From NCBI GenBank assembly GCA_028279805.1, contig JANQMZ010000007.1:390001-422000 (forward strand): a stretch of DNA of 32,000 nucleotides. Reading direction: 5' to 3'. Shown in pieces: positions 1,845-28,324 of this stretch. Position numbers and translations under genes: made by a program. Position 1 is the first letter of the stretch, and the number at the start of each line of letters is the position of its first letter. The DNA comes from an archaeon. Its GTDB lineage: Archaea; Iainarchaeota; Iainarchaeia; Iainarchaeales; JANQMZ01. The notes beneath the pieces are model-generated. The model worked only from the letters and a program-made list of their open reading frames with translations, was not told the DNA's origin and made no database searches.

Positions 1845-2741
1845 ATGGATGAAACAATTGCAAAAAAATACCAAAAAGCAGGCAAAATATTGAAAGAAGC
1901 ACAAGAAAAAGCCAAAAAAAAGGCTAAAAGTGGTGTAAATTTGCTTGAATTGGCTGAAACAATTGAAAAATTCGTAGAAAGTAAGGGCGCAAAACCGGCT
2001 TTTCCGGTTAATTTATCCACAAATAATAACGCAGCACACCAAACTCCGGCTTTAGGAGAAATGACTACGCTGCAAAAAGAAGATGTTGTAAAAATTGATA
2101 TTGGTGCGCATATTGACGGTTACATTGCAGACTCATCCTTTACATTAAATTTGTCAGGCGATTATAAAGATTTGATTAAAGCAACAGATGAAGCTTTGAA
2201 AAATGCAATAAAAGCAGTTGAAGATGACTTGGATTTGGGACAGACCGGAAAAATAATTCAGGATACAATTAAAAGCCACGGTTTCAATCCTGTTCAAAAT
2301 TTGTCAGGCCACGGACTAATGCGTTATATGCAGCATGCTCCTCCAAGCATTCCAAACATTGAAAAAAATGATGAACGCGGATTTGAAAATGACCATGTTT
2401 ATGCAATTGAACCATTTGCAACTGACGGAGTTGGATTTGTAAAAGAAGGAACTGTTTCAGAAATATACATGATTGAAGAAGAAAGAAACGTTCGCAATCC
2501 TTATGCAAGAAAAATTTTAGAATTTGTTGAAAAAGAATATCAAGGGCTGCCTTTTGCAGAACGCTGGTTACAAAAATTAAAATTAAGTGAATTTCAATTA
2601 AAAGTTGGGTTAAAATCTTTAATGCAGGAAAAAATATTGAAAAGTTTTCCAATATTGCATGAAGATCCTGGCAAAATTGTTTCACAATCAGAAAATTCTG
2701 TTTTAATTTTTGAAGAAAAAGTTATAACACTGGTGAAATAA
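1845..2741 (+). CDS. map: Methionine aminopeptidase, type 2 (short archaeal form)
   Basis: 298-aa ORF with AFPVNLSTNNNAAHQTP and DIGAHIDGYIADSSFT segments. The C-terminal helical insert is typical of archaeal MetAP2. Confidence 0.85.
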   Translation: MDETIAKKYQKAGKILKEAQEKAKKKAKSGVNLLELAETIEKFVESKGAKPAFPVNLSTNNNAAHQTPALGEMTTLQKEDVVKIDIGAHIDGYIADSSFTLNLSGDYKDLIKATDEALKNAIKAVEDDLDLGQTGKIIQDTIKSHGFNPVQNLSGHGLMRYMQHAPPSIPNIEKNDERGFENDHVYAIEPFATDGVGFVKEGTVSEIYMIEEERNVRNPYARKILEFVEKEYQGLPFAERWLQKLKLSEFQLKVGLKSLMQEKILKSFPILHEDPGKIVSQSENSVLIFEEKVITLVK

Positions 2742-2779
2742 AATGTGCCGCCGTAGATGAATCACACAAATTCTTGGAC

Positions 2780-2895
2780 ACGCGGGCTGACTCCCGCGAC
2801 ACGTCTGCGGGTGCTATCTAAAGATAGCACACAAATGCGCTTCAAAAGCGCCAGTCCCAGTGAAACTGGGGCGTTCATACGCGGAACACCGCGTT
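2780..2895 (+). ncRNA. GC-rich multi-hairpin module, copy 1 (immediately 5' of tRNA-Arg); unknown family
   Basis: Consecutive perfect hairpins: CGCGGG/CCCGCG 2781-2798 (alternative CCCGC 2793-2797/GCGGG 2807-2811), GTGCTATC/GATAGCAC 2811-2830, GCGCT/AGCGC 2837-2851, CCCAGT/ACTGGG 2856-2870, ACGCGG/CCGCGT 2879-2894. It shares strings with 10220-10325 and 14463-14572. Strand is assumed from the adjacent tRNA. Confidence 0.55.
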
Positions 2896-2967
2896 GGCCC
2901 TGTGGTGTAATGGATAGCATAAAAGCTTGCGGAGCTTTTGACTCGGGTTCGACTCCCGGCGGGGTCA
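2896..2967 (+). tRNA. tRNA-Arg (anticodon GCG)
   Basis: Hand-folded 72-nt cloverleaf. Acceptor GGCCCTG/CGGGGTC has 2 G-U pairs. D arm GTGT-AATGGATA-GCAT, anticodon arm AAAGC-TTGCGGA-GCTTT, T arm TCGGG-TTCGACT-CCCGG, discriminator A. Confidence 0.82.
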
Positions 2968-3006
2968 TTCAAAAACATTTTTTAATGCTGAAAACATATT
3001 TTTGGC

Positions 3007-4497
3007 ATGTTTATTCACATTACTTTTGATGATTTTAAGGCAGTTTTGCGTGATACGGGCATTATTCTAAAGTATTCATCTGTAATGTTTTTGATTCCTA
3101 TAATTTTATCCCTGTTTTTTCAGGAAGGGTTTGAAATTTTTTCATTTTATTTGGTTTCAGGTGTTATTGGTTTTTTGCTGGGAATTGTTTTGGAAAAATT
3201 GTTTGAAACAAAACTTGAAACAGATTTACAGCATGCTTTTTTAACAACAAGTTTGGCCTGGTTAATTTTTCCGGCTTTGGCTGCATTGCCGTTTTTTTTA
3301 ATTCAGAATATGTCTTTTGCAGATTCTTTATTTGAATCAATGTCAGCTTTAACAACAACCGGCTTGACTGTTATGGGGCATCTGATTGAGAATTCACCAA
3401 AAAGCCTGGTTTTGTGGAGAAGTTTTCTAAGCTGGATCGGAGGAATCGGCATTGTTGTTTTGGCTTCATTAGGATTGTTTGTTACTTATACTAAAGCTTC
3501 AAAATTAATTGTTTCGGAGGAAGGAAAAGAAAGGTTAAGGCCTAATTTGAAAAACAGTGTAAAACTTGTTTTCAAAATTTATTCAGTTTTAACAATTATC
3601 GGAATTGTGTTGTTATTTTTAAGCGGAATGACTTTGTTTCAGGCAATAAATTATTCCATGTCAGCAATTTCAACAACAGGAATGGATTTGACTTATGAAG
3701 GATTGGCAGCAACAAACAATTACTGGCAGCCTTTAGGCATTCATAATTACTGGGTTGACTTGAGTTTAATTTTTATAATGTTAATGGGAGCAACAGCTTT
3801 TTCTTTGCATTATTTGTTCTGGAAAAACAAAAACATTTTTGAATATTTTAAGGATCCGGAATTTAAAGTTTTAATTTTAGCTTCATTGGTTTCAGCATTT
3901 GCGGTTATTCCAAAGCTTGGAATTCAAAGTTCAATATTTCACGCAGTTTCTTCAATAACAGGCGGAGGTTTTTCGTTAATTTTACCTGAACAAATCGGGT
4001 TATGGCCAAGTTTTGTTTTGCTTGTTTTAACGGCAATAATGTTTATTGGAGGCAGTTCAGGTTCAACGGCGGGCGGAATAAAGATTAGCAGGTTTATTAT
4101 TTTTGTTAAAAGCATTTACTGGAAAATAAAGCAAACAATTTTGCCAGAAGAAGCTGTTTTTGCAAAAAAATTTGAAAAAAGAATAATAAAAGATTCTGAA
4201 ATAAAACAGGTTTTTCAGTTCATTGTTTTTTATGCTTTATTTGTTTTTTTGGGCGTTTTTGTCCTGACTTTTGAAGGATTTGAAATGAGCCAGGCTTTGT
4301 TTGAGGTTGTATCAGCTCAAAGCAATGTTGGAATTTCGGCAGGAATATCGGAACAAGGTTTGCCTTTGTTGTCAAAAACAATGTTGATTTTGAACATGTG
4401 GATTGGCCGTTTGGAAATTTTGCCTTTTTTCAGCATTGTTGGTTTTTTGCTTGCATTATTTTCAGGCAAAAAAGGAAAAGTTATATTAAACAATTAA
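3007..4497 (+). CDS. trkH: TrkH/KtrB-family K+ uptake membrane subunit
   Basis: 496-aa polytopic protein with repeated pore-loop-like segments (LTTTGLTV, ISTTGMD, ITGGGFS, GSTAGGIK). It lies directly upstream of trkA. Confidence 0.85.
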   Translation: MFIHITFDDFKAVLRDTGIILKYSSVMFLIPIILSLFFQEGFEIFSFYLVSGVIGFLLGIVLEKLFETKLETDLQHAFLTTSLAWLIFPALAALPFFLIQNMSFADSLFESMSALTTTGLTVMGHLIENSPKSLVLWRSFLSWIGGIGIVVLASLGLFVTYTKASKLIVSEEGKERLRPNLKNSVKLVFKIYSVLTIIGIVLLFLSGMTLFQAINYSMSAISTTGMDLTYEGLAATNNYWQPLGIHNYWVDLSLIFIMLMGATAFSLHYLFWKNKNIFEYFKDPEFKVLILASLVSAFAVIPKLGIQSSIFHAVSSITGGGFSLILPEQIGLWPSFVLLVLTAIMFIGGSSGSTAGGIKISRFIIFVKSIYWKIKQTILPEEAVFAKKFEKRIIKDSEIKQVFQFIVFYALFVFLGVFVLTFEGFEMSQALFEVVSAQSNVGISAGISEQGLPLLSKTMLILNMWIGRLEILPFFSIVGFLLALFSGKKGKVILNN

Positions 4498-6448: not shown

Positions 6449-6676
6449 AACATTCTTCCTTTTCCATTTACATTATTTCTTTATTTGATTTGTTTATTAA
6501 TATGCATTCATCTTAAGAGCTAAAAACAAAAACTATTTAAATGCTCAAAACAGGATTATAATAGTGGGTTAAAATGAGAAGGGATTTACTTCACAAATAA
6601 CGCTTTTTCTTACGATTTGATTAGCCCGCGGAACAGTTTTAAACAATTTTCCTTAATTTTAGCTTTAGCTTTCAAT

Positions 6677-8123: not shown

Positions 8124-8807
8124 ATGATTTTTATGCAAGAATCGTTAGTTGATTTTTTGGTTGAAAAATATATTCAAAAAGAACAAGTTTTGGGAATCGG
8201 AACGTCAAACGAAGCTGAAAAATTTATTAAAAGCATAGCTTTGAAAGATTTGAATGTAAAAATTGTTCCCACATCAACAAAATTAGCGGGAATAATTGCT
8301 TCTCTTGGTTTAGATGTTTGCGGAATATCGGAGCAGGAAATTGATGTTGCAATTGAATTTATTGACCAGATAGATGAACATTTTAGTTTTATTAAAAACA
8401 ATTCACATTCCCTTGTCAGAGACAAAATGATCGGACAGTCAGCTTCAGAATTGATTGTTGTGACTGATGAAAAAAATTTTGTTAAAAGATTAAAAGGAAT
8501 TGTTCCGGTTGAAATTACTCCTTTTGGCTGGAAAAGAACTTTAATTCAACTTGAAAATTTTGGAAATGCAAAATTGAAAGAAGAGTCCGGCAATCCTGTT
8601 AAAACTGAAACCGGGAATTTTTTTGTTGATGTTAATATTGCTGATATTTTTTCATTAGAAGAATTAGAACAAGAATTAAAGAATATTCCCGGCGTGTTGG
8701 AAACCGGTTTGTTTATTGGTTATGCTGACAGAATTGTTTTAACTGATGGAAAAGGAATAAAAGTTAAGTCAAGAATGATGCCTGATTTTTCAAAAGCAAA
8801 AACTTAA
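8124..8807 (+). CDS. rpiA: Ribose-5-phosphate isomerase A (divergent)
   Basis: 227 aa with the RpiA layout: LGIGTSNEA (GxGTGST-like), VPTS, IDVAIEFIDQID (DGADE-like region), PVEITPFGW, and a C-terminal GVLETGLF motif. Confidence 0.7.
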   Translation: MIFMQESLVDFLVEKYIQKEQVLGIGTSNEAEKFIKSIALKDLNVKIVPTSTKLAGIIASLGLDVCGISEQEIDVAIEFIDQIDEHFSFIKNNSHSLVRDKMIGQSASELIVVTDEKNFVKRLKGIVPVEITPFGWKRTLIQLENFGNAKLKEESGNPVKTETGNFFVDVNIADIFSLEELEQELKNIPGVLETGLFIGYADRIVLTDGKGIKVKSRMMPDFSKAKT

Positions 8808-8846
8808 AGCTTTCTAACCAAAATTATTAAGAAAAAACACTAAATT

Positions 8847-8921
8847 GCCGCAGTAGCTCAGCCTGGTTAGAGCGCTAGACTCATAATCTAGAGGTCGTGG
8901 GTTCAGATCCCACCTGCGGCA
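8847..8921 (+). tRNA. tRNA with CAT anticodon (elongator Met, or Ile2 if C34 is modified)
   Basis: 75-nt cloverleaf: acceptor GCCGCAG/CTGCGGC, D arm GCTC-AGCCTGGTTA-GAGC, anticodon arm CTAGA-CTCATAA-TCTAG, T arm GTGGG-TTCAGAT-CCCAC. It lacks the three G-C pairs of an initiator anticodon stem. Confidence 0.9.
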
Positions 8922-9106
8922 CTAATTTTAAAAAAAAAGAAATCAATCTCAGAACTCATAATCGTCTTCATTTTCTATTGAATCAGCGCTCAGCCTGTTC
9001 TTCATAGATTGATTTTAATACATACGCAAATAAAATTAATATATTTGCCCTTTCATCGGAAAACCGCTTTGAAAATTCTTATTTAAAAATAAAACCAAAT
9101 AATAAC

Positions 9107-9799
9107 ATGTATGCTAGGGGAAAAAATGGTTGGTTTTCAATTAAAACAGCAAACAATCTTATAGAAAAACCAACTGAAGAATTAGCCGAATTTATTGGAA
9201 TTATGCTTGGCGATGGAAACATTCACGAAATAGATGGCAAAGGAATTTACCAAGTAAGGATAGCAGGACATAAAATTGATGATGCAGCATATTTTGATTA
9301 TTTAGAAAAATTGTTTATCAATCTTTTTGGAAAAAAACCTTCTTTTTATAAGTCAAAAAATAGAAAAACAATCTATCTTACGAAACAAAGCAAAGATGTT
9401 GTACACACTCTAAAACATTTTGGATTAATTCCAGGAAATAAAACAAAAAACAATTGTGGAATCCCAAGTTGGATTTTTTCCAATAATAAATTTTTGAAAG
9501 CTTGTGTAAAAGGACTTATAGATACTGACGGAAGTGTTTATCCCAAAACAAAAAAACACAAAACGCCTACAATTTACTTTACAAGCGCAATTCCAGAACT
9601 AAGACAAGATTTTAAAAAAGCTCTTCAGAACTTAAATTATAAATGCTCAAAATGGGTTAAAAAATCAGGAAAGGCAGCACAAGATTGTACAATTGGAGAT
9701 AGAGCAGAAGTTTTGAGGTACTACAGAGAAATAGGTTTTTCAAATCCAAAACATGAAAAAAGATTCAAAAAATTTTGGAAACTCGCCCTTGTAGTGTAG
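9107..9799 (+). CDS. Free-standing double-motif LAGLIDADG homing endonuclease
   Basis: Two LAGLIDADG motifs, FIGIMLGDGNIH and KGLIDTDGSVYP, about 105 residues apart in a basic 230-aa protein. The last 15 nt overlap tRNA-Glu. Confidence 0.85.
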   Translation: MYARGKNGWFSIKTANNLIEKPTEELAEFIGIMLGDGNIHEIDGKGIYQVRIAGHKIDDAAYFDYLEKLFINLFGKKPSFYKSKNRKTIYLTKQSKDVVHTLKHFGLIPGNKTKNNCGIPSWIFSNNKFLKACVKGLIDTDGSVYPKTKKHKTPTIYFTSAIPELRQDFKKALQNLNYKCSKWVKKSGKAAQDCTIGDRAEVLRYYREIGFSNPKHEKRFKKFWKLALVV

Positions 9800-9859
9800 C
9801 CTGGTCAAGCACACAGGGTTCTCAACCCTGTAACCCGGGTTCAAATCCCGGCAAGGGCA
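9785..9859 (+). tRNA. tRNA-Glu (anticodon CTC)
   Basis: 75-nt cloverleaf: acceptor GCCCTTG/CAAGGGC, D arm GTGT-AGCCTGGTCAA-GCAC, anticodon arm CAGGG-TTCTCAA-CCCTG, T arm CCGGG-TTCAAAT-CCCGG. Confidence 0.9.
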
Positions 9860-9870
9860 TTGGTGATAAA

Positions 9871-10182
9871 ATGAAAGAATTGCAGGAAAAAATCAAACAG
9901 TTTTGCAAAGAACATGGATTGGAACATAAAGCAGAACACCATGCATTGGATTTGGCTTCAGAAACTGGTGAAATTGCAAAAGAAATACTGAAAATGAGTG
10001 ACTATGGCAGAAAAAAACTGGAAAAAAATGAAAACATTGAATCAGAATTAGGCGATGCTTTATATTCTTTGATTACAATTGCAAATTATTTTGATGTTAA
10101 TCTTGAAAAAGCTTTGGAACTGGTTTTGGAAAAATATGAAAAAAGACTAAAAAAAGGTTCAGCAGGCTCTGAAAACGATTAA
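9871..10182 (+). CDS. MazG-like nucleotide pyrophosphohydrolase (small all-alpha NTP-PPase)
   Basis: The track ORF 9775-10182 is trimmed to ATG 9871 (GGTGA at 9862-9866), because the upstream part is tRNA-Glu. Motifs ETGEIAKEILK and ELGDALYSLITIANYFDVNLEKAL match the MazG EExxE/D pattern. Confidence 0.72.
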   Translation: MKELQEKIKQFCKEHGLEHKAEHHALDLASETGEIAKEILKMSDYGRKKLEKNENIESELGDALYSLITIANYFDVNLEKALELVLEKYEKRLKKGSAGSEND

Positions 10183-10187
10183 AAAGC

Positions 10188-10195
10188 TATTTAAA
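10188..10195 (+). promoter_or_regulatory. TATA box (TATTTAAA) driving the hairpin module plus tRNA-Thr(UGU) transcript
   Basis: The box is centred about 26 nt upstream of 10218-10220, the first bases of the GC-rich module. Confidence 0.5.
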
Positions 10196-10219
10196 CAATT
10201 ACAAAAACAATTAATAGAA

Positions 10220-10325
10220 ACGCGGTGTTCCGCGTGAGAACATCCGCCTTCGGCAGGATGTCCGAAGCAAAGCTTCGGAAGTGCCACTGAAAGTGGCACG
10301 CGGAGTAACCGTACGCAATCGGTTC
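10220..10325 (+). ncRNA. GC-rich multi-hairpin module, copy 2 (apparent 5' leader of tRNA-Thr-UGU)
   Basis: Hairpins: ACGCGG/CCGCGT 10220-10235, ATCCGCC/GGC(A)GGAT 10242-10259, TCCGAAGC/GCTTCGGA 10261-10279, GTGCCACT/AGTGGCAC 10281-10299, AACCG/CGGTT 10307-10324. Alternative closing helix: CCGCGTG 10230-10236 with CACGCGG 10297-10303. Confidence 0.55.
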
Positions 10326-10398
10326 GCCTCGGTAGCTCAGTGGCTAGAGCACTTGCCTTGTAAGCAGGGGGTCGCGAGTTCGAATCTCGCTCGAGGCT
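10326..10398 (+). tRNA. tRNA-Thr (anticodon TGT)
   Basis: 73-nt cloverleaf: acceptor GCCTCGG/TCGAGGC (identical to the GGT isoacceptor), anticodon arm CTTGC-CTTGTAA-GCAGG, T arm GCGAG-TTCGAAT-CTCGC. A T-run follows. Confidence 0.9.
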
Positions 10399-14388: not shown

Positions 14389-14396
14389 TTTAAAAA
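14389..14396 (+). promoter_or_regulatory. TATA box (TTTAAAAA) for tRNA-Tyr
   Basis: Centred about 26 nt upstream of about 14418, which gives a leader of about 7 nt before tRNA position 1 (14426). Confidence 0.45.
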
Positions 14397-14425: not shown

Positions 14426-14608
14426 CCCGCCTTAGCATAGTAGCCAATGCGCTCGGCTGTAGACTCCCGCCTGACCGCGGGAAAAGGTCGTGTCACTTTC
14501 GGTGACACTGGCGCTCTTTGAAGCGCAAAACCGGTTAAATCCGTTTTAGGATTGAAACAGCGCATGGCAGTAACCGAGAGATCCCCGGTGCAAGTCCGGG
14601 AGGCGGGA
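14426..14608 (+). tRNA. tRNA-Tyr (anticodon GTA) interrupted by a 110-nt intron at the canonical 37/38 site
   Basis: Exon 1 is 14426-14462: CCCGCCT-TA-GCAT-AGTAGCCA-ATGC-G-CTCGG-CTGTAG. Exon 2 is 14573-14608: A-CCGAG-AGATC-CCCGG-TGCAAGT-CCGGG-AGGCGGG-A. CTGT (32-35) can pair with GCAG 14567-14570, leaving 3-nt bulges AG|A and TA|A, as expected for a bulge-helix-bulge (BHB) site. Confidence 0.85.
14463..14572 (+). ncRNA. tRNA-Tyr intron = GC-rich multi-hairpin module, copy 3
   Basis: Hairpins: TCCCGC/GCGGGA 14465-14482, GTGTCAC/GTGACAC 14490-14508, GCGCT/AGCGC 14511-14526. It shares strings with copies 1 and 2. Confidence 0.8.
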
Positions 14609-14681
14609 CTTAGCCTATTATTTGGAGATGGCGATACATTTAAATAAACGACCGACTAATCAGTCTATTGGTGATACTGAA

Positions 14682-15494
14682 ATGGAACAAAAAGTTATTT
14701 TAATTACAGGAGCCAGTTCCGGAATGGGGAAGGTTACTGCTATAAATCTAATCAAGGAGGGGCATATTGTTTATGGAGCTTCTTTTGATCCGGAAAACAT
14801 GAAAGACCTTGAAAAATTGGGAGGAAAAATTCTGGACATGGATGTTACAAAAGATGAACAAATTGAAGCAGGCGTTAAAGAAGTGATTGATAATGAGGGT
14901 AGGATTGATGTTCTTTGGAACAATGCAGGTTATGGTTTATATGGTCCGGTTGAAGAAATTCCTTTAGAGCAAGGGAGGCATCAGTTTGATGTGAATTTTT
15001 TCGGGCTTGTAAAACTGACACAGGTTGTAACGCCGCACATGAGAAAACAAAATTCAGGATTGATTATTAATACTTCTTCAATGGGTGGCAAAGTTTACTT
15101 TCCGTTAGGCGCATGGTATCATGCAACAAAACATGCAGTTGAAGGTTTTTCAGATTGTTTAAGATTAGAATTAGAACCTTTTGGAATAAATGTTGTTGTA
15201 TTGGAACCAGGAGCAATTGAAACAGGATTCTATAATGCTCTGCTGAAAAATGTTTCAGATGAATGGTTAAAAGGACCATACGGAAAAAGAGTTGAACGAA
15301 TGAAGAATTTTGATACTAGTTCAATGAAAGGTTCTCCTCCAAGTGTTATTTCTGAAACTGTGCAAAAAATTATTTCAACTGACAAACCAAAAACAAGGTA
15401 TGTTGTTGGAGCAATGGCTCGGCCAATGATGTTCATGAGAAAATGGTTTGGAGACAGGTTTTATGATGGAATGATAAAAAGAAACTTTGGATAA
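14682..15494 (+). CDS. Short-chain dehydrogenase/reductase (classical SDR)
   Basis: TGASSGMG cofactor motif, NNAG, and catalytic YHATKHAV. I prefer ATG 14682 over the track's 14622, because a TATA-like ATTTAAAT at about 14637-14645 lies inside the longer ORF. Confidence 0.9.
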   Translation: MEQKVILITGASSGMGKVTAINLIKEGHIVYGASFDPENMKDLEKLGGKILDMDVTKDEQIEAGVKEVIDNEGRIDVLWNNAGYGLYGPVEEIPLEQGRHQFDVNFFGLVKLTQVVTPHMRKQNSGLIINTSSMGGKVYFPLGAWYHATKHAVEGFSDCLRLELEPFGINVVVLEPGAIETGFYNALLKNVSDEWLKGPYGKRVERMKNFDTSSMKGSPPSVISETVQKIISTDKPKTRYVVGAMARPMMFMRKWFGDRFYDGMIKRNFG

Positions 15495-15540
15495 CAAAGC
15501 TCTTTTATTTCATTAAACATTATTAAAATAATGGATTTTC

Positions 15541-16095
15541 ATGGATAAAAAAGAACAAATTATCAAAACTGGCATGAAGCTTTTTGTCAAACAGGGATTT
15601 GAGAATACTCCCACTTCCCAAATTTCAAAAGAAGCCAAAGTTGGAACTGGTACATTATTTCATCACTTTAAAACAAAAGATGATTTGGTAAATGAAATTT
15701 ACACTTATGTCAAGAAAAGCATGGCAAATGCTTCCTTTAAGAATGTAAATGAAAAAATGGGAATAAAAGACCAAATTAAGTTAATTTGGAATAATTTGAT
15801 GGAGTGGGGATTTAAAAACAGAAATGAAAACCAGTTTCTTGAAAGGTTTTATGGTTCAACATATATTAACAAATTAACTATTGAACAAATGCAATCAGAG
15901 TTTAAATATGCAGGAAAGCTTTTTGAAAATGCTAAAAAAAACAATATAATTAGGGATATTTCACCTGAACTGCTTGAAAGCATTACATTTGCAATAAACA
16001 GAAGCTTTTTAGCAGAATTCTATAAAAAGAAAAAATTTGACAAAAAGCTGTTAAAGCAAAGCTTTGAAATGTACTGGAATGCAATTAAGAAATAA
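15541..16095 (+). CDS. TetR/AcrR-family transcriptional regulator
   Basis: N-terminal HTH (TPTSQISKEAKVGTGTLFHHFKTKDDL), 184 aa. Confidence 0.85.
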   Translation: MDKKEQIIKTGMKLFVKQGFENTPTSQISKEAKVGTGTLFHHFKTKDDLVNEIYTYVKKSMANASFKNVNEKMGIKDQIKLIWNNLMEWGFKNRNENQFLERFYGSTYINKLTIEQMQSEFKYAGKLFENAKKNNIIRDISPELLESITFAINRSFLAEFYKKKKFDKKLLKQSFEMYWNAIKK

Positions 16096-16108
16096 TTGGA
16101 ATGATTTT

Positions 16109-17323
16109 ATGCAATTATTTAAAAACACTTTTCGCGAATGGTGGCAAGTTCCAAGAAGAGCCGGTGAGAGGATTGAGCACAGGCAAGTCACATTTTTGGA
16201 GCTATTTTATGATTTAGTTTATGTTGTTTTAATTGCACAATTAGCCCATTCACTTTCACACCATTTAAATGTTACAGGAATTATTAATTTTGTTTTTCTA
16301 TTTGTAATTGTTTGGTGGGCTTGGTTTAATGGAACAAGTTATCATGATACTCACGGAAATAATGACATTAGAACAAGGTTCTATACTTTTCTCCAAATGC
16401 TTTTTGTAGTAGGAATGGCCTTATTTGCACAAAATGCTATTGGAGAAGGTTCAGTAGGTTTTGCTATTTCATATGCATTATTTCAACTGACTTTGACAAT
16501 ACTTTGGTGGAGAACAGGAATACATGATTTAGATCATAAACCTTTATCTCAACCATATTCAATCGTGTTTTTATTCAACACAATATTGTTTGCTGCATCC
16601 ATTTTCTTTGCAGAGCCGTTAAGGTATTACATATGGGGATTTGCAGTATTACTTTCATTACTTCTCCCATTTGTTTTACTAAAACAGGCAAGAGTCAATC
16701 CAAAAGCGAAAGCCCAATGGGATATTGTAAGGAATATTTCACCTTCAATGGTTGAAAGATTTGGATTGTTCACAATCATTGTTCTTGGAGAAGTTGTTTT
16801 AGGAGTTGTTTCTGGAGTTTCTGTAGATCATGGCCTATCCTTAACAGTCGTTGGCACTGCACTACTGGGAACACTTATTGCGATTGGAATTTGGTGGTCT
16901 TATTTTGATTCAGTTTCACACAAGATTCCAAAAAAAGAAGAAATTCATTTTGCAAGCTGGTTTTATTTACATTTACCAATGACAATGGGAATTGCTGCAG
17001 CTGGAGCAGCAATTTTAAATGCTTTAGAGCATCCAGGAGAAATAATGCAAATTGAAGCTCATTTACTTCTTTTAATTTCACTTGCAATTGTTCTTGTCTG
17101 CATTGCCCTATTAACAAGAACAGTAAACCATCCAAAAGAACAAATGGCTTATATTTCAAAGGGAAGGCAAAAATTAATTTTTTCATCAGCCTTAATTATC
17201 CTATTAGGATTTGTTAGCTTGAACTCAATTTATATCCTGACAATTCTTGTATTTTTATTGTTTTTGCCAATTGTCTTTAGCATATTAGAATGGATGAAAT
17301 TGGTTGATAAGAAAAAAGAGTGA
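16109..17323 (+). CDS. LtrA-like (low temperature requirement A family) membrane protein
   Basis: VTFLELFYDLVYVVLIAQLAH is the signature N-terminal segment of the family. The protein has about 10 TM helices. Start moved to ATG 16109, after the TetR stop at 16095. Confidence 0.72.
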   Translation: MQLFKNTFREWWQVPRRAGERIEHRQVTFLELFYDLVYVVLIAQLAHSLSHHLNVTGIINFVFLFVIVWWAWFNGTSYHDTHGNNDIRTRFYTFLQMLFVVGMALFAQNAIGEGSVGFAISYALFQLTLTILWWRTGIHDLDHKPLSQPYSIVFLFNTILFAASIFFAEPLRYYIWGFAVLLSLLLPFVLLKQARVNPKAKAQWDIVRNISPSMVERFGLFTIIVLGEVVLGVVSGVSVDHGLSLTVVGTALLGTLIAIGIWWSYFDSVSHKIPKKEEIHFASWFYLHLPMTMGIAAAGAAILNALEHPGEIMQIEAHLLLLISLAIVLVCIALLTRTVNHPKEQMAYISKGRQKLIFSSALIILLGFVSLNSIYILTILVFLLFLPIVFSILEWMKLVDKKKE

Positions 17324-17444
17324 TTTGATGAAAAGACTACTATCAAAAAACCGCTCACTTCGCCCTAATTCTGGCAAGTCTGGGAGCTGGGATTACTGAT
17401 TATTTTATGCAAAACAATAAATTTACAGGAAGAATAGGTTTTAT

Positions 17445-18236
17445 ATGAGTGCAAGTTTTTCCGGAAATCGTAGTATTTTTCCTGCTCAGGAATATCTTAA
17501 AAGAGAAGCTAATCATTTACAACGTTTAAAAGATGCTGTTGAAAAACGCGATGTTGAAAAAATTAGAAGTGTTTTGGAAGAGTATCCTCTTTTTGGAACA
17601 TTATATTACGGCAAAACTTTTGAAGAAAAAAAAGAATTGGTTGATTTGCTTTTAACTGCTTCACGAATGATTGAACAAAAATATCCCCAGTACCATGAGG
17701 GATTAAAAGAATTAAAACCGGGAGATGTTATTCTAACAAGAGATAATACCAGAATAAGCAAATGGTTAAGGTTTTGGCAATCTGCTTTTCCGGGAAGAAA
17801 GGCAAGTACAAGCCACATTGCAATTTATTTGGAAAACGGTTGGATGATAAGCGCATATGGTTGGCCGTATGACAGAATTGTTTTAGAGCATGTGAAAAAA
17901 TTAGCTGACAAAGGTAAATTTACTGTTAAAGTGCTTAGATTAAAAGGAGAACATGGAGAAATTAACAGAGAAACATTAAGAAATTTTTTAACGGAAGCCG
18001 TTGGAAAAAGATATGCATCTTTTTTATTTACATTCGGACAAGTGCTTGGAAGAAGAACAAGAAAACATTTATCACATGCAGAAAAACACACTTGCGGGAC
18101 GCTTGCAGCAGAAGCATTACAGGAAAGCACCGGAAAAAGGTTTGATATTGGAGCGCACTGGCCGAGAGATTTTGAACATAGTTCTTTATTTAATCCAGTA
18201 ACACAATTTAGTGGGAGAAACCATAAAAGAAGGTGA
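17445..18236 (+). CDS. Hypothetical protein, possibly a permuted papain-fold (NlpC/P60-superfamily, YiiX/C92-like) hydrolase
   Basis: GDVILTRD...TSHIAIYLENGWMISA comes before a later HTCGTLAAEAL. The His-before-Cys order resembles permuted papain-like enzymes. This is a weak, motif-level call. Confidence 0.4.
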   Translation: MSASFSGNRSIFPAQEYLKREANHLQRLKDAVEKRDVEKIRSVLEEYPLFGTLYYGKTFEEKKELVDLLLTASRMIEQKYPQYHEGLKELKPGDVILTRDNTRISKWLRFWQSAFPGRKASTSHIAIYLENGWMISAYGWPYDRIVLEHVKKLADKGKFTVKVLRLKGEHGEINRETLRNFLTEAVGKRYASFLFTFGQVLGRRTRKHLSHAEKHTCGTLAAEALQESTGKRFDIGAHWPRDFEHSSLFNPVTQFSGRNHKRR

Positions 18237-18242
18237 ATAAAA

Positions 18243-18692
18243 TTGCAGAGTAAAGCTAAAACGGTTAAAGAGTATTTGAATGAATTGCCTGAGGAAAGAA
18301 AAAAATCAATTTCTCTTGTCAGAAAAATTATTTTGAAAAATTTGCCAAAAGGGTATAAGGAAACAATGCAGTATGGAATGATTGGATATGTTGTTCCGTT
18401 AAAACATTATCCAAAAGGTTATTTGAATGATGAAAAAACGCCATTGCCTTATGTAAGCCTTGCTTCTCAAAAAAATCATATGGCTGTTTATTTAAGCAAT
18501 ATTTATGCTGATAAAAAATTAAGTAAATGGTTTACAACTGAATATAAAAAAAGTGGAAAAAAAATGGATGTGGGAAAATCCTGTGTTCGTTTTAGAAAAT
18601 TAGAAAATTTGCCTGTTGAATTAATTGGAAAAGCTGTTAAAAAAACTTCAATGAAAAAGTTTATTGAAATGTATGAAAAAAGAAAAAAATGA
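18243..18692 (+). CDS. DUF1801 (YdhG-like) domain protein
   Basis: TVKEYLNELPEERKKSISLVRKIILKNLP...YVSLASQKNHMAVYL is the pattern of the DUF1801 family. TTG start in the track. Confidence 0.6.
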   Translation: MQSKAKTVKEYLNELPEERKKSISLVRKIILKNLPKGYKETMQYGMIGYVVPLKHYPKGYLNDEKTPLPYVSLASQKNHMAVYLSNIYADKKLSKWFTTEYKKSGKKMDVGKSCVRFRKLENLPVELIGKAVKKTSMKKFIEMYEKRKK

Positions 18693-18786
18693 AAAGCCTT
18701 TATTGGTCTTTGATAAGGCGGTCCATTAATTCATCCATTTTTGCTGATTCTTCTTCGGTCATTGAAATCTGATATTTAAATGTTGA

Positions 18787-18993
18787 TTATCTGATTTCGA
18801 TTCCTCTTCCCTGTAATTGTTTGGCTACTTCAGACTGGCTGACATTAAATTTTCTGGAAGAATTTATAACCATTTGAGTAGTTACCACTGTCAAACCGGC
18901 AGCCTGAGCGCCTCTTATAACATCCTGAGCTGCTCTTTTTATGTTAACTTTAATTTGTTTTCTTGAAACACCTCTCCTACGCCCTTGAGTCAT
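18787..18993 (-). CDS. Small basic protein (68 aa), possible nucleic-acid binder
   Basis: Arg/Lys-rich N-terminus (MTQGRRRGVSRKQIK). By eye it is GC-richer than its neighbours. No family recognised. Confidence 0.4.
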   Translation of the reverse strand: MTQGRRRGVSRKQIKVNIKRAAQDVIRGAQAAGLTVVTTQMVINSSRKFNVSQSEVAKQLQGRGIEIR

Positions 18994-19030
18994 AAAAGAA
19001 TATTAAAATTCTCTTATTTAAATTTTTAGT

Positions 19031-20482
19031 ATGGACTTACAAAAAAGAACACTTTTAATTTTACTAATTTTACTGATTTTCGGAGCTTTTTTAAGATTTT
19101 ATGGTTTGGGAGAACAAAGTTTTTGGTTGGATGAGGCAATAACCACAAATGCAGCAAAAGCATTAATTGAAACTGGAACTCCGACATTTGATTCAGGGCA
19201 TGTTTATAATCAAAGAATTCTGAATACTTTTTTAATCGGATTATCAATGCAATTTTTTGGTTTTAATGAAATGGCTGCAAGAATTCCCGCAGTTTTGTTT
19301 GGCTTATTGACAATATTAATTGTTTATTTTTTTGTTAAAAGCATTTCAAATGAAAAACTGGCTTTAATGTCAGGCTTTTTTGTAACATTTGTAACATTGT
19401 TTATTGGCTGGTCAAGGCAGGCCAGAATGTATCAGCAATTGCAGTTTTTTTATCTGGCTTCACTTTTTCTGTTTTACAAGTATACTGAAACAAAAAAACC
19501 GGAATATTTGATTTTAACAATTTTAAGTACAATAGCAGCAATTTTTTCGCATGAATTTGCTTATTTGCTTTTGATAATTTATGCTTTTTATTTTGTCATA
19601 ATAAAAGGAATTGAATGGCATAAAAAGAGGAGATTAAAATTAGAATTAAAACCGGTTTTGATTGCCGGAATTCTTTTGGCTGGATTGTTTTTTCTTGGTT
19701 TGAATCAGGCAATTGAATATGTTTTACAGAACAGGGTTAACTATTTCTGGATTTATTTAAATTATTTGCATAATGAATTTTTTGTATTTTTTTACTTAAG
19801 TCTGACCGGAATGGTTATTGCTTTAAGGGAAAAAATTAAAACAAGTTTAATGGTTTTGGCATTTATTATTCCTTTTGTTGTTTTATCAAGCTCTGTGTTG
19901 TTGTTACATTTTCGTTACCTGTTTTTTATTTTGCCTTTAATGTTTGTTTTTTCAGCTTATTCAATTTTTTATTTTTATGAATTGTTAAAAAACAAGTTTG
20001 ATTTAAAAATTGCAAAAATTTTTGGAATAATTGTTTTTGTTTTAATTGTTTTTGCTTCAAATGCTTTTACTTTTGTTCCTCAAAATGAATATTATTTGGA
20101 CAGATTTTCTCCCCAGCCGGATTTTAAAAAAGCTTATTCTTTTCTGGAAGAAAACAATGCTCAAATTGTGATTGATTCGTGGCCTGCTGTTGGAAAGCAT
20201 TTCAGGGGAAAATCAGATTACTGGATTTATTTTAACATTACCGGCGTAAAAAAAGACCTTTTAATTGATGATTCTCATGAAATTTATGCAAATGCTGTTG
20301 CTTTGAGAGATAAAAAAGAATTAGAAGAATTTTTGGAACAGGATGAAAAAGTGTGGCTTTTGATGGATAATACTGCATGGATTAAGTTGTCGCCGGAGCA
20401 AAAAAATGTTATTCAGAATCAAATGGTGGAAATTAAAGAATTTGTTAATGACAAGTTCTGGATTAAAATTTATTCAACGTGA
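19031..20482 (+). CDS. GT-C fold glycosyltransferase (ArnT/PMT_2-like, polyprenyl-phosphate-sugar dependent)
   Basis: The N-terminus LRFYGLGEQSFWLDEAITTNAAKAL is typical of family 39/83 enzymes. About 11 TM helices plus a C-terminal soluble domain. TATTTAAAT at about 19014-19022 suggests a leaderless mRNA. Confidence 0.75.
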   Translation: MDLQKRTLLILLILLIFGAFLRFYGLGEQSFWLDEAITTNAAKALIETGTPTFDSGHVYNQRILNTFLIGLSMQFFGFNEMAARIPAVLFGLLTILIVYFFVKSISNEKLALMSGFFVTFVTLFIGWSRQARMYQQLQFFYLASLFLFYKYTETKKPEYLILTILSTIAAIFSHEFAYLLLIIYAFYFVIIKGIEWHKKRRLKLELKPVLIAGILLAGLFFLGLNQAIEYVLQNRVNYFWIYLNYLHNEFFVFFYLSLTGMVIALREKIKTSLMVLAFIIPFVVLSSSVLLLHFRYLFFILPLMFVFSAYSIFYFYELLKNKFDLKIAKIFGIIVFVLIVFASNAFTFVPQNEYYLDRFSPQPDFKKAYSFLEENNAQIVIDSWPAVGKHFRGKSDYWIYFNITGVKKDLLIDDSHEIYANAVALRDKKELEEFLEQDEKVWLLMDNTAWIKLSPEQKNVIQNQMVEIKEFVNDKFWIKIYST

Positions 20483-20487
20483 TTAAA

Positions 20488-22416
20488 ATGAAACAAACAA
20501 TGAAAGAAACAATAAAACTGTTATTGCCGGCTTTAATTATTTTTTATTTTTTTGTTTTAATTGCAAGAAATTTTAACCCTTTTTTATTGCCAAACATTGA
20601 GGACAGAATTTTTTTAGCTTTAATTCCGACACTTTTTTTGTTTGTAATAATTTATTTGCCTGAATATATTGCAAAAAGCCGGAGTAAAATTGTTAACAAT
20701 GTTTTAAATTTTCTGAAAAAAGTTCAGCAAAATAAACAATTAAAAACAGTTGTTACAAATTTTTTCTTTTTTCTTTTGCTGGTGCTTTTAGTTGATGCTT
20801 ATTTTTTGTTTTTGGAATCTTTTACAGTTATTCTGGCAATAATTACCGCTTTTTTAGGAATAATTACTTTCTGGTTAAACAAGCATTTGCTGGCTACAGA
20901 GCATGAATGGATTGTTGATGACAGGATTTATAAAATTGGCTTTATTGCAATTATTTTGCTGAATTTGTTTTTCACTTTTAACGGTTTTACTGATATCAGC
21001 ATTAATCCTGATGCACAGCAATGGTTAGGACGCGGAGTTAATTATTTTTCTTATTTTTTCGGAGAACAAATTCAACAGGAACTGATTTCCTTTTATGATT
21101 TGGATTTTTGGGAGCTAACCAATACTCCTGGTTTAACAAGTGCTTTTTTAGTTGGTTTGAGCTTGTATTTGTCTTATTTGTTTAATTTTTCAACTGACCC
21201 TGTTTTTGTTGCAAGATTGCCTTTTGCTTTATTGTCAATTGTTTTTATTATTGTGTTTTATTTTTTAAGCCAGAAATTTGTTGATAAAAAAACAAGTTTT
21301 TTTGCAACAGTTTTTTTGTCATTATCTCCTTTTTTTCAGTTTTTAAGCAGGGAAATTCATCTGGATTTTTTACTGGGTTTTTTTATTTTTTTAACAGTGT
21401 ACTTTTATTATGCTTACCAGGAAAAACATGACAACAAGAATTTGATTTTATTTTCATTATTTTTTGGACTGGCGATTTTAACAAAAGTTACCGCGTTATT
21501 TTTAGTGCCATTAATTGGTTTTATTGAAATTACAAAAATTTCAAAAACAAAAAAAATCAACCTAAAACACTATTTTATTGCAGCTTTTGTGGTTTTGGGC
21601 CTGATTGTTGCCGCCTGGCCGGGTTTAATTCAGAATCCTGTTGAAAAAAGCCTTGATTTGGTTGGTTACACCGGGGACATTTCCACCTCCCAAACTCACA
21701 GAGGTTTTTGGTTCGGAACACTTGGCTCTTTGCCGTTTTATTATTATGCTTTTATTTTGCTGATAAAACTGCCTTTGATTTTTTTAGCGTTTTTGTTACT
21801 GGGTTCTTTGCGTTCTTTGAAAAAAAATTATTTTTTAATTCCGGCATTGTTTATGATTTTAACTTCAATCAGCACCAAAATGGCTGACCGTTATCTGATA
21901 ACCGTGTGGCCTTTTTTGCTTTTAATAATAGGAACAGGGTTTGTGACATTAACAGAATTTATTCGTGCAAGATTTAATTTAAAAATGGCAAAAATGTTAA
22001 TGGCTTTAACACTTGTTTTTGTTTTGTTAAATATTTTAATTGTTGTGCCAAATTACGGATTGTATTATAATTCTTTAATCGGCAAAACGGAAAATGCTCA
22101 GAATTATATCAGGTTCGGCTGGGGAGAAGATTCAAAAAAAGCTGCAGAATTTGTAAATGAAAAATATGGCAATGCAAGCATTGCGGCTTTTACTTATTCT
22201 TATGATACAGGTTATTATTCTCATGGAAATACAATAGCTGCGCTGCATCCTGGCTGGGAAGACCAGGATTTATTGCTGGTTTCAGTTTCCAAAAGGGTTT
22301 TATTGCATGAAAATCATCCTGTGCAGAAAATAATAAATGAAAATGAGCCGATTGATGTTATTTTTGTTCAGGGAATTCCTATGACAGAAGTTTATGATTT
22401 AAAAAATATTAATTAG
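20488..22416 (+). CDS. Second GT-C fold glycosyltransferase (PMT_2-like), 640+ aa
   Basis: Polytopic protein. The segment ARLPFALLSIVFIIVFYFLSQKF...LSPFFQFLSREIHLD resembles ArnT/PMT_2 core helices. I prefer ATG 20488 to the track's GTG 20479, which overlaps the upstream stop. Confidence 0.62.
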   Translation: MKQTMKETIKLLLPALIIFYFFVLIARNFNPFLLPNIEDRIFLALIPTLFLFVIIYLPEYIAKSRSKIVNNVLNFLKKVQQNKQLKTVVTNFFFFLLLVLLVDAYFLFLESFTVILAIITAFLGIITFWLNKHLLATEHEWIVDDRIYKIGFIAIILLNLFFTFNGFTDISINPDAQQWLGRGVNYFSYFFGEQIQQELISFYDLDFWELTNTPGLTSAFLVGLSLYLSYLFNFSTDPVFVARLPFALLSIVFIIVFYFLSQKFVDKKTSFFATVFLSLSPFFQFLSREIHLDFLLGFFIFLTVYFYYAYQEKHDNKNLILFSLFFGLAILTKVTALFLVPLIGFIEITKISKTKKINLKHYFIAAFVVLGLIVAAWPGLIQNPVEKSLDLVGYTGDISTSQTHRGFWFGTLGSLPFYYYAFILLIKLPLIFLAFLLLGSLRSLKKNYFLIPALFMILTSISTKMADRYLITVWPFLLLIIGTGFVTLTEFIRARFNLKMAKMLMALTLVFVLLNILIVVPNYGLYYNSLIGKTENAQNYIRFGWGEDSKKAAEFVNEKYGNASIAAFTYSYDTGYYSHGNTIAALHPGWEDQDLLLVSVSKRVLLHENHPVQKIINENEPIDVIFVQGIPMTEVYDLKNIN

Positions 22417-27912: not shown

Positions 27913-28248
27913 ATGCTTGAAAAATATTCAAAGGAAATAACGCAGTTTTTTGCATTGTTTCTGGTGATATCAGCGGGAATAATTGTTTATTTGTGGAACC
28001 AGCCTTTATTGTTTCCCGGTTTAATTGAAAGATTATTGGTTTTATTGTTTTTTTCAGGGGTTTTGGCTTTGCTGGTTAATTTGAAAAAAACCAATGTAAA
28101 AAAATTAACAGAAAAACTGTTTAAAGCCAGTTTTTTGGGTTTTTTCATTGTTTTAATTGCCGGATTATTCTGGTTTATCGGCTTGGAAATTTTGTTATTT
28201 TTGGCTGCAATTGTTGCTTTTTTTGGAATTGTTTCAAGGCTTTTTTAG
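27913..28248 (+). CDS. Small integral membrane protein (about 4 TM), unknown function
   Basis: 111-aa hydrophobic ORF with a well-placed TATA box. Confidence 0.45.
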   Translation: MLEKYSKEITQFFALFLVISAGIIVYLWNQPLLFPGLIERLLVLLFFSGVLALLVNLKKTNVKKLTEKLFKASFLGFFIVLIAGLFWFIGLEILLFLAAIVAFFGIVSRLF

Positions 28249-28324
28249 TGTTTTAAACGTCAAGGAACAGTATTTAAAATGTACGCCAAAAAAATTAATT
28301 ATACTCAATAAGGCAGTGAAAATA

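Follow-up and report, generated by a model that had tools for sequence, protein, structure and literature searches.

In a 32,000-nt stretch of archaeal DNA (referred to below, at its full length, as the window; contig JANQMZ010000007.1 of assembly GCA_028279805.1, positions 390,001 to 422,000), three GC-rich blocks, each made up of successive hairpins, lie within or directly beside tRNA genes. The host, an archaeon with an AT-rich genome, is a DPANN member of the Iainarchaeota/Diapherotrites type. It seems to us probable that the three blocks, here termed modules 1, 2 and 3, are co-transcribed pre-tRNA spacers belonging to one evolving family built of hairpins, which would be removed by RNase P (or a substitute for it) or by the splicing endonuclease, and would have been spread by recombination targeted to tRNA genes. 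Module 3 is a canonical bulge-helix-bulge (BHB) intron of tRNA-Tyr(GUA), while modules 1 and 2, from their position, most likely represent transcribed 5' leaders, about 145 nt and about 107 nt long, respectively. Alignments indicate that all share ancestry, through descent and recombination, with the multi-hairpin introns, leaders and trailers that syntenic tRNA genes carry in relatives. Because orthologous tRNAs in relatives carry such blocks as introns, leaders or trailers, we regard them as variable pre-tRNA spacers, and not as a discrete RNA gene.

Hairpin-built blocks within and beside tRNA genes

An earlier description, made from the letters of the window alone (the sequence-only reading), had pointed to GC-rich blocks built of hairpins in AT-rich DNA. 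This is amply borne out by composition and folding: the GC contents of modules 1, 2 and 3 are 58%, 58% and 53%, against 33% (32.8%) for the window, and their folding z-scores relative to dinucleotide shuffles are -5.6, -4.8 and -2.1. Each block comprises four or five consecutive hairpins with stems of 5-8 bp and loops of 3-8 nt, 58-65% of the bases being paired in minimum-free-energy folds, with only five G-U pairs among 104. GC-rich hairpin clusters were found nowhere else in the window. The features of the three loci, all on the forward strand, are as follows.

2722-2727 (+): putative TATA-like box TTATAA after AAAAAG (AAAAAGTTATAA, weaker), read by eye, about 25 nt before 2747
2747-2779 (+): candidate decayed 5' exon of an ancestral intron-containing tRNA-Arg, or 5' strand of a leader helix (weak)
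2780-2895 (+): module 1, putative 5' leader of tRNA-Arg(GCG), from its folding and from homology to the tRNA-Arg intron of L061 and the tRNA-Arg leaders of L041 and L020
2781-2798 (+): module 1 hairpin H1, loop CTGACT
2811-2830 (+): module 1 hairpin H2
2837-2851 (+): module 1 hairpin H3
2856-2870 (+): module 1 hairpin H4, loop UGAAA
2879-2894 (+): module 1 hairpin H5, loop AACA
2896-2968 (+): tRNA-Arg(GCG), complete and intron-less (start 2896 by Rfam, 2895 by ARAGORN)
10190-10196 (+): putative TATA-like box AAAAGCTA-TTTAAAC (AAAAGCTATTTAAAC), read by eye, 30 nt before module 2
10219-10325 (+): module 2, putative 5' leader of tRNA-Thr(UGU), from its folding, a 20-mer shared with L041 and collinearity with trailers of L020
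10220-10235 (+): module 2 hairpin, reverse complement of module 1 H5
10240-10261 (+): module 2 hairpin
10261-10279 (+): module 2 hairpin
10281-10299 (+): module 2 hairpin, loop UGAAA
10307-10324 (+): module 2 hairpin
10326-10398 (+): tRNA-Thr(UGU), complete and followed by a T-run (ARAGORN, Rfam)
14389-14396 (+): putative TATA-like box AAAAGC-TTTAAAAA of tRNA-Tyr, read by eye, implying a leader of about 6-9 nt
14426-14462 (+): tRNA-Tyr(GUA) exon 1
14463-14572 (+): module 3, 110-nt canonical (37/38) BHB intron
14465-14482 (+): intron hairpin, loop CTGACC
14490-14508 (+): intron hairpin, loop UUUCG
14511-14526 (+): intron hairpin
14538-14553 (+): intron hairpin
14573-14609 (+): tRNA-Tyr exon 2

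When 14463-14572 is removed, the exons join to give a canonical 74-nt tRNA-Tyr(GTA) cloverleaf. The splice sites show the geometry of a BHB motif, with an anticodon stem (CTCGG/CCGAG), 3-nt bulges (AGA and TAA) and a central 4-bp helix (CTGT/GCAG), the outer helix being replaced by the first hairpin, H1 (a relaxed form). ARAGORN misnames this gene (14426-14609, including the 110-nt intron) as tRNA-Asn. The last hairpin of the intron (AAATCCGTTTTAGGATTGAAAC, 14537-14558) has some resemblance to the 3' half of a CRISPR repeat with the handle ATTGAAAC (Rfam CRISPR-DR5/DR9, E about 1-3); a CRISPR reading was discarded, there being no array in the window and no occurrence of the pattern in any of the fetched loci.

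Modules 1 and 2 are situated between promoter-like boxes and complete tRNA genes, and leaders of about 145 nt and 107 nt are therefore inferred for them. The last base of module 1 is 2895, at which ARAGORN begins tRNA-Arg (Rfam begins it at 2896), and the end of module 2 at 10325 directly adjoins the start of tRNA-Thr(UGU) at 10326; in both, a single unpaired base separates the last hairpin from tRNA position +1. The box at 10190-10196, which is nearly the same as that before tRNA-Tyr (AAAAGCTTTAAAAAC), gives a predicted transcription start at about 10218-10222, and therefore at the start of module 2. Transcription from the box at 2722-2727, which sits within the last codons of the MetAP gene, would begin near 2747-2752. 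Similar TTTAAA boxes are found 100-150 nt upstream of hairpin-filled leaders in L005 and L007. Between the presumptive start and module 1, positions 2752-2776 match positions 8-33 of tRNA-Arg at 17 of 24 sites (p about 0.036), collinearly with an alignment to exon 1 and the intron of L061 that is described below. BLAST matches of the stretch preceding module 1 (ACACAAATTCTTGGACA and others) in relatives fell in coding or unrelated DNA, and we judged them to be chance. No intact 5' exon, of the kind that would flank an intron, is present upstream of module 1 or module 2, and all seven tRNAs of the window are contiguous and collinear, so they are neither split nor permuted.

The sequence-only reading had listed five strings shared among the blocks, and direct reading confirmed them all. 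Positions 2873-2895 agree with the reverse complement of 10219-10241 at 21 of 23 sites, including an exact 17-mer; the core 16-mer ACGCGGAACACCGCGT, at 2879 (+) and 10220 (-), had no match in 100 dinucleotide-preserving shuffles of the window, as expected from the claim that so long a repeat would hardly arise by chance. CCAGTGAAACTGG (2857-2869) and CCACTGAAAGTGG (10284-10296) differ, as that reading stated, only by a compensatory swap in the stem, with the loop kept; ACGCGGA is present at 2879 and 10298; GGCTG-ACTCCCGC (2785-2797) matches GGCTGtagACTCCCGC (14455-14470); and GCGCT...AGCGC hairpins occur at 2837-2851 and 14511-14526. Moreover, 27 of 34 positions agree between 2836-2869 of module 1 and the reverse complement of 14494-14527 in the Tyr intron. 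With MAFFT the three blocks could not be aligned as one RNA, and only sub-hairpins match: what they share is single hairpins and sub-units of two or three hairpins, some of them inverted. Module 1 recurs without a single difference in an independent Logan assembly from the same population; module 2 is without such confirmation because the relevant Logan contig (L202) starts inside tRNA-Thr(UGU), at window position 10354.

The blocks had also been said to belong to no known family and to lack a C/D-box consensus or any match to RNase P or signal recognition particle RNA, and this held in Rfam scans and a motif check: over all three blocks, at gathering and at permissive thresholds, Rfam gave tRNA alone, with no acceptable match to its RNase P, signal recognition particle, 5S, C/D, H/ACA, Hgc or ribozyme models (the best other matches, at E>=0.5, being far below threshold), and the modules have no TGATGA (C box), the lone CTGA lying within a hairpin, so that they do not qualify as box C/D small RNAs. 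Minimal RNase P, 5S rRNA, self-cleaving ribozymes and box C/D or H/ACA guides were dropped as candidates, with no model matches and no box motifs; likewise a role for the hairpins as intrinsic terminators or promoter elements, for which the spacing is unfit given an archaeal TATA box at about -26.

When metagenomes were scanned for the 16-mer ACGCGGAACACCGCGT, 120 matches came up, nearly all of them chance occurrences in GC-rich bacterial coding DNA. Only one was similar, at 4400-4470 (-) of L139, a contig of 37% GC: here the 16-mer lies in a GC-rich multi-hairpin block and is preceded, as in the window, by GTTC. Neither a tRNA (ARAGORN) nor an Rfam match was found near this block.

Homologous modules at tRNA genes of relatives

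Loci of relatives were collected through homologues of HisRS (80 loci) and of TrkH (five more), and they show that additional multi-hairpin sequence at tRNA genes characterizes the clade. Some ten of 20 tRNA-Arg(GCG) orthologues contain introns of 38-93 nt, each with two to four hairpins, of which the first lies just after the 5' splice site; all are in the anticodon loop except that of L203, which is in the D-loop. Similar hairpin introns occur in tRNA-Glu, tRNA-Thr(GGU), tRNA-Tyr and tRNA-His of various genomes, and D-loop introns in tRNA-Glu of L203 and L211. L041 and L020 resemble the window in having an intron-less tRNA-Arg behind a hairpin leader.

Module 1 (2773-2848) is collinear with the end of exon 1 (CTTG) and the intron of the L061 tRNA-Arg, with an alignment score of 18 against 8.5 +- 1.5 for shuffles (z 6.1). 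When module 1 was compared with 74 real introns, leaders and trailers (mean 8.1, sd 2.3), no other foreign sequence matched it better than this intron (z about 4.3). Hairpins H1, H2 and H3 are common to the window Arg leader, the L061 Arg intron and the window Tyr intron; across these three copies the H1 loop is kept as CUGACU, CUCACU and CUGACC, respectively, and three to four of the six H1 pairs are changed on both sides. Four leaders (those of tRNA-Arg in the window, L041 and L020, and that of tRNA-Thr in the window) have in common a UGAAA-loop hairpin and a terminal hairpin. The former lies upstream of the tRNA at a distance of 25 nt in the window Arg leader, 27 nt in the window Thr leader and 28 nt in the L041 Arg leader, and is followed after about 8 nt by the latter, which has the tetraloop AACA or its complement TGTT. 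In an alignment of four leaders of this type, four of the eight stem pairs of the UGAAA hairpin show compensatory change. When used for a search, a covariance model of these leaders also picks up L020 5434-5482, together with the Tyr intron of the window and the Arg intron of L061, both on the opposite strand. The module 2 20-mer AGTGCCACTGAAAGTGGCAC recurs unchanged at L041 4039-4058 (E 2.5e-4 in 1.25 Mb), and module 2 is collinear over 55-60 nt with sequences that follow tRNA-Leu and tRNA-Glu in L020.

The association with tRNA genes is specific. In 1.06 Mb of AT-rich DPANN sequence, of which tRNA genes with 150 nt on either side make up about 4%, there are four clusters of at least three close, GC-rich perfect hairpins, and all four are in tRNA leaders or introns; perfect hairpins as a whole are 2.6 times denser within 150 nt of a tRNA. 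Within these 1.06 Mb, the modules thus do not behave as dispersed palindromic repeats (of the repetitive extragenic palindrome (REP), miniature inverted-repeat transposable element or GC-cluster types).

Two predictions of the sequence-only reading are therefore upheld by the comparison with relatives, namely compensatory changes in stems (in the UGAAA hairpin across four sequences, and in H1 across three copies) and the existence of further members (L041, L020 and L061, by covariance-model search and alignment). Its idea of a single family of about 110 nt at tRNA processing sites stands in so far as the blocks are related and are bounded by a presumed RNase P site in two cases and by splice sites in the third, but not as a family with one global alignment.

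Hairpins of other kinds are also found near tRNAs in this clade. In L005 and L007, a genome-specific leader end with the form ttttcgccNGCCTTT-loop-AAAGGC (a GGCCTTT-loop-AAAGGCC hairpin) abuts position +1 of nearly every tRNA (Arg, Met, Glu, Thr-UGU); behind the 3' end of tRNA-Arg there are hairpins like it. A conserved loop, GAGCGAAGCGAA(A/G), carried on variable complementary stems and with tandem GA around a GCGAAGC mini-hairpin, is present at L005 12319, L007 3685 and 6301, L020 5424 and 17500, L061 6254, L078 6013, L026 10870, L029 5451 and L042 1130 and 1201. These hairpins lie in tRNA leaders and trailers of relatives and in some other intergenic regions; they have no Rfam match and are absent from the window.

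Possible traces of recombination at tRNA genes

Duplicated tRNA fragments accompany modules in several relatives. In L020, the trailer modules of tRNA-Leu and tRNA-Glu are each followed by an orphan copy of the T-loop-to-3'-end segment of their own tRNA. At tRNA-Met of L014, an orphan copy of the 5' end (25 nt) lies upstream of the gene and an orphan copy of the 3' end lies downstream, with hairpin modules between, and a 16-19-nt 5' copy of tRNA-His is found 62 nt upstream of that gene in L209, the spacer including its complement. Layouts of the form fragment-module-full tRNA, and their mirror images, are the expected product of integration into a tRNA gene; they are also expected if one exon of an intron-containing gene is replaced by a full copy. 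In the window, a search allowing up to three mismatches found no well-preserved duplicates of tRNA fragments around modules 1 and 2 or around the LAGLIDADG gene mentioned below, nor any elsewhere in the window, and neither target-site duplications nor terminal inverted repeats were found around modules 1 and 2.

We draw attention also to LAGLIDADG endonuclease-like open reading frames (ORFs) that are joined to tRNA genes, at 9107-9799 (+) in the window, at 8421-9932 and 18981-20034 in L209, and at 13954-15036 in L203. The stop codon of the window ORF is inside tRNA-Glu (9785-9859). One of the ORFs in L209 runs into a complete tRNA-Leu(CAG) in inverted orientation, and an orphan 3' fragment of tRNA-Leu is left at the ancestral site upstream of TrkH, which suggests a LAGLIDADG-plus-tRNA cassette that replaces resident tRNA genes; other copies in L203 and L209 overlap the 3' end of tRNA-Thr(GGU). 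In the close relative L206, a tyrosine integrase gene and a series of small ORFs (15214-21476) lie directly downstream of tRNA-Glu(CUC) and represent an integrated element.

Proposed processing and origin of the modules

If the modules are pre-tRNA spacers, modules 1 and 2 would be cut off by the 5'-processing enzyme (RNase P or a substitute), and the Tyr intron would be taken out by the splicing endonuclease and a ligase. On the simplest reading, module 1 may be an intron that now lies outside the tRNA body, or the same insert captured at a different position. The hairpins may be kept by selection for local, self-contained folding, so that neither the tRNA body nor the splice motif nor the RNase P site would be obstructed; under such selection, stems would therefore co-vary while sequences turn over fast. 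New copies would arise by tRNA-targeted recombination, which in relatives would leave duplicated tRNA 5' or 3' fragments beside modules. We suggest with considerable reserve a more particular route, in which a cassette enters tRNA genes by segment-duplicating recombination, becoming first a leader or trailer and then, after loss of the duplicate, a BHB intron (or the reverse, with an intron being expelled), the DNA breaks being provided by LAGLIDADG proteins or integrases.

A number of observations sit less easily with the interpretation of the modules as spacers. The promoter-like boxes on which the leader lengths depend were read by eye. The exon relic before module 1 is weak (p about 0.036), and the bases concerned can alternatively form a 9-bp leader helix with 2802-2810; at module 2 no tRNA exon relic was found. 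Leaders are missing in the closer relatives L203, L206, L209 and L211, a patchy distribution that also fits mobility. The architecture of the Arg leader is kept in the window, L041 and L020 despite TrkH identity of only about 55%, and a 20-mer is identical in two distant genomes: these two facts could point to an independent function of the excised RNA or of the DNA. Finally, the stems are almost without G-U pairs, and G-U and A-C mismatches number two each, too few to tell RNA-level from DNA-level constraint.

We think it unlikely that the modules are small mobile DNA elements (or footprints of them) targeting tRNA genes, with inverted repeats that are protein-binding sites, and with duplication on insertion giving a leader or trailer that becomes an intron when the duplicate is lost. 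Such elements would account for sub-units common to non-orthologous tRNAs and distant genomes in both orientations, for patchy presence among close relatives, for the modules of L014, L209 and L020 that have a full tRNA on one side and a duplicated 5' or 3' fragment on the other, for the presence of at least four related copies in L020, and for stems that are nearly all Watson-Crick; moreover, the tRNA genes of this clade have been invaded by an integrase element (L206) and by LAGLIDADG-tRNA cassettes, and a model of this kind has been proposed for Caldiarchaeum (PMC3293823). However, no tRNA-fragment duplications (at up to three mismatches), terminal inverted repeats or target-site duplications were found around modules 1 and 2 of the window; the modules are mosaics with covarying stems, and not uniform copies; no copies were found outside tRNA loci in the 1.06 Mb cluster scan; the leaders keep a fixed orientation and distance relative to the tRNA, with conservation at the orthologous Arg locus of three genomes; and no mobilizing enzyme is linked to them. 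The mobile hairpin cassette envisaged in the sequence-only reading is supported only in part: in its favour are the sharing of sub-units between non-orthologous tRNAs and across genomes and the duplicated fragments of relatives, and against it are the lack of target duplications or terminal repeats in the window and of any copy found away from tRNAs.

Also unlikely, and somewhat more so, is the proposal that the excised modules are functional structured RNAs (leader pieces released by RNase P, or circularized introns) acting in trans or binding protein through the loops UGAAA and CUGACU. On this view they would depend on tRNA processing for maturation only, like the box C/D RNAs inside tRNA-Trp introns. 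The loops are indeed conserved on covarying stems (UGAAA, and the H1 loop CUNAC(U/C) in the window Arg, window Tyr and L061 Arg copies), the Arg leader is kept in three divergent genomes, the same module is an intron in one genome and a leader in another, and these GC-rich modules persist in a streamlined AT-rich genome. Against this, there is no match to an Rfam family, no C box and no H/ACA layout; a given sub-unit is found in either orientation, and its two strands would yield different RNAs; the nearest relatives have no modules; the remaining tRNA-Arg introns, many of them AT-rich, are alike in hairpin style only and not in sequence; and long-range or tertiary-type pairings are lacking. 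The undescribed discrete structured RNA postulated from the window alone is likewise not supported, since in relatives' orthologues the blocks are parts of pre-tRNA spacers. That the modules are a product of chance, of low-complexity sequence or of misassembly is hardly credible: the Logan contig L202 does break inside tRNA-Thr(UGU), beside module 2, and nearly all the metagenome matches of the 16-mer are due to chance in GC-rich bacteria, but shuffles gave no match at all, folding z-scores reach -5.6, module 1 is identical in a second assembly, and homologous modules lie at syntenic tRNAs of independent metagenome-assembled genomes (MAGs).

Genes and other conserved sequences of the window

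The gene content of the window is archaeal (family B DNA polymerase (PolB), MetAP, TrkH/TrkA, HisRS, RpiA and DUF2666). The top homologues of PolB, HisRS, TrkH and other genes are in Iainarchaeota/Diapherotrites and Woesearchaeota MAGs, at 41-58% identity. The seven tRNA genes (Arg-GCG, His, Thr-GGU, Met, Glu-CUC, Thr-UGU and Tyr-GUA) follow the conserved order Arg-His-HisRS-Thr-Met-Glu-Thr-Tyr, and the tRNA order around HisRS is repeated in many relatives.

The only GC-rich stretch of the window besides the modules, at 28880-28960 (53% GC), is coding, being a Gly/Pro/Glu-rich low-complexity part of the ORF 28157-29200 and no RNA module; it holds a match to the 16-mer ACGCGGAACACCGCGT with three mismatches. 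Between tRNA-Met and tRNA-Glu, a block of about 70 nt (…gaactcat…cagcctgttcttcat…) is conserved in three genomes (window 8950-9020, L203 about 18530-18600, L206 about 14950-15030); its minus strand would start ATGAAGAACAGGCTG, and it may be an unannotated small ORF or RNA. A motif resembling atgggcgatttacttca is conserved about 90-110 nt upstream of tRNA-His in four genomes (the window, at about 6575-6600, L203, L206 and L211).

Significance and comparison with known systems

There is no settled view of how archaeal tRNA genes gain, move and lose protein-spliced introns, or of the connection between introns and split-tRNA leaders, and current models rest on few cases (Thermoproteales, Nanoarchaeum and Caldiarchaeum). 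In the DPANN clade considered here, the same hairpin modules occur in four arrangements: as introns, as long 5' leaders, as trailers before orphan 3' fragments, and beside orphan 5' fragments. At syntenic tRNAs these provide a comparative series for ordering evolutionary steps and, if they are indeed a record of the birth and death of introns, a directly testable mechanism of intron gain. Leaders of 100-150 nt with tight hairpins abutting +1 would be unusual substrates for RNase P. There is a consequence for annotation too, in that tRNA finders mis-call such genes (as ARAGORN does in taking tRNA-Tyr for Asn). Our search of the literature found no account, for DPANN archaea, of complete tRNA genes with long leaders that are built of hairpins and show homology to introns of the orthologous tRNA.

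Archaeal BHB introns at the canonical 37/38 position have been reviewed (PMC4090602). The Tyr intron (14463-14572) is like them in lying one nucleotide 3' of the anticodon, in its two 3-nt bulges around a 4-bp helix and in yielding a normal spliced tRNA-Tyr; it differs in its unusual length (110 nt), its four independent hairpins and the fact that at the 5' bulge H1 stands in for the outer helix. Since each is followed by a complete tRNA, modules 1 and 2 are not introns.

Other RNAs are matured by tRNA processing, as in the case of box C/D RNA housed in tRNA-Trp introns and of the tRNA-C/D dicistrons of Nanoarchaeum. There, as would be the case here, an extra RNA is released at tRNA boundaries by RNase P or the splicing endonuclease, but our modules have no C, D or ACA boxes, no Rfam match and no evident guide function. 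GC-rich palindromic elements are familiar from AT-rich genomes, in the form of yeast mitochondrial GC clusters, fungal mitochondrial double-hairpin elements and bacterial REP sequences. The modules share with these the occurrence of GC-rich hairpins in an AT-rich genome, two-hairpin units in either orientation, and location in sequence that is cut from mature RNA; unlike them, they are not dispersed (every cluster is at a tRNA locus) and are mosaics, not near-identical copies. Among Thermoproteales, introns have reportedly transposed between tRNA genes (Fujishima et al., 2010, cited in PMC4390854 and PMC4090602). The likeness is in related intron sequences in different tRNA genes; the difference is that in the present DPANN lineage it is sub-intron hairpins that are shared, some inverted, and that they are also in 5' leaders and 3' trailers.

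A relationship between introns and leaders is known from split and permuted tRNAs (Fujishima, 2009; Chan, Cozen and Lowe, 2011 (PMC3218864); see also PMC4390854). In our case too, what is an intron in one genome has its counterpart in the leader of an orthologous tRNA in another, but the leader in the window precedes a complete tRNA-Arg, and no complementary trailer partner is needed. In Caldiarchaeum subterraneum, integration of a 1.8-kb mobile element disrupting a tRNA gene has been proposed as a route of intron gain (Sugahara et al., 2012; PMC3293823). The arrangement of tRNA 5' fragment, insert and full tRNA in L209 (His) and L014 (Met), with its mirror image in L020 (Leu and Glu), is comparable, although the inserts here are 50-150 nt of hairpins without a recombinase gene, and the window itself is without clear fragment duplication.

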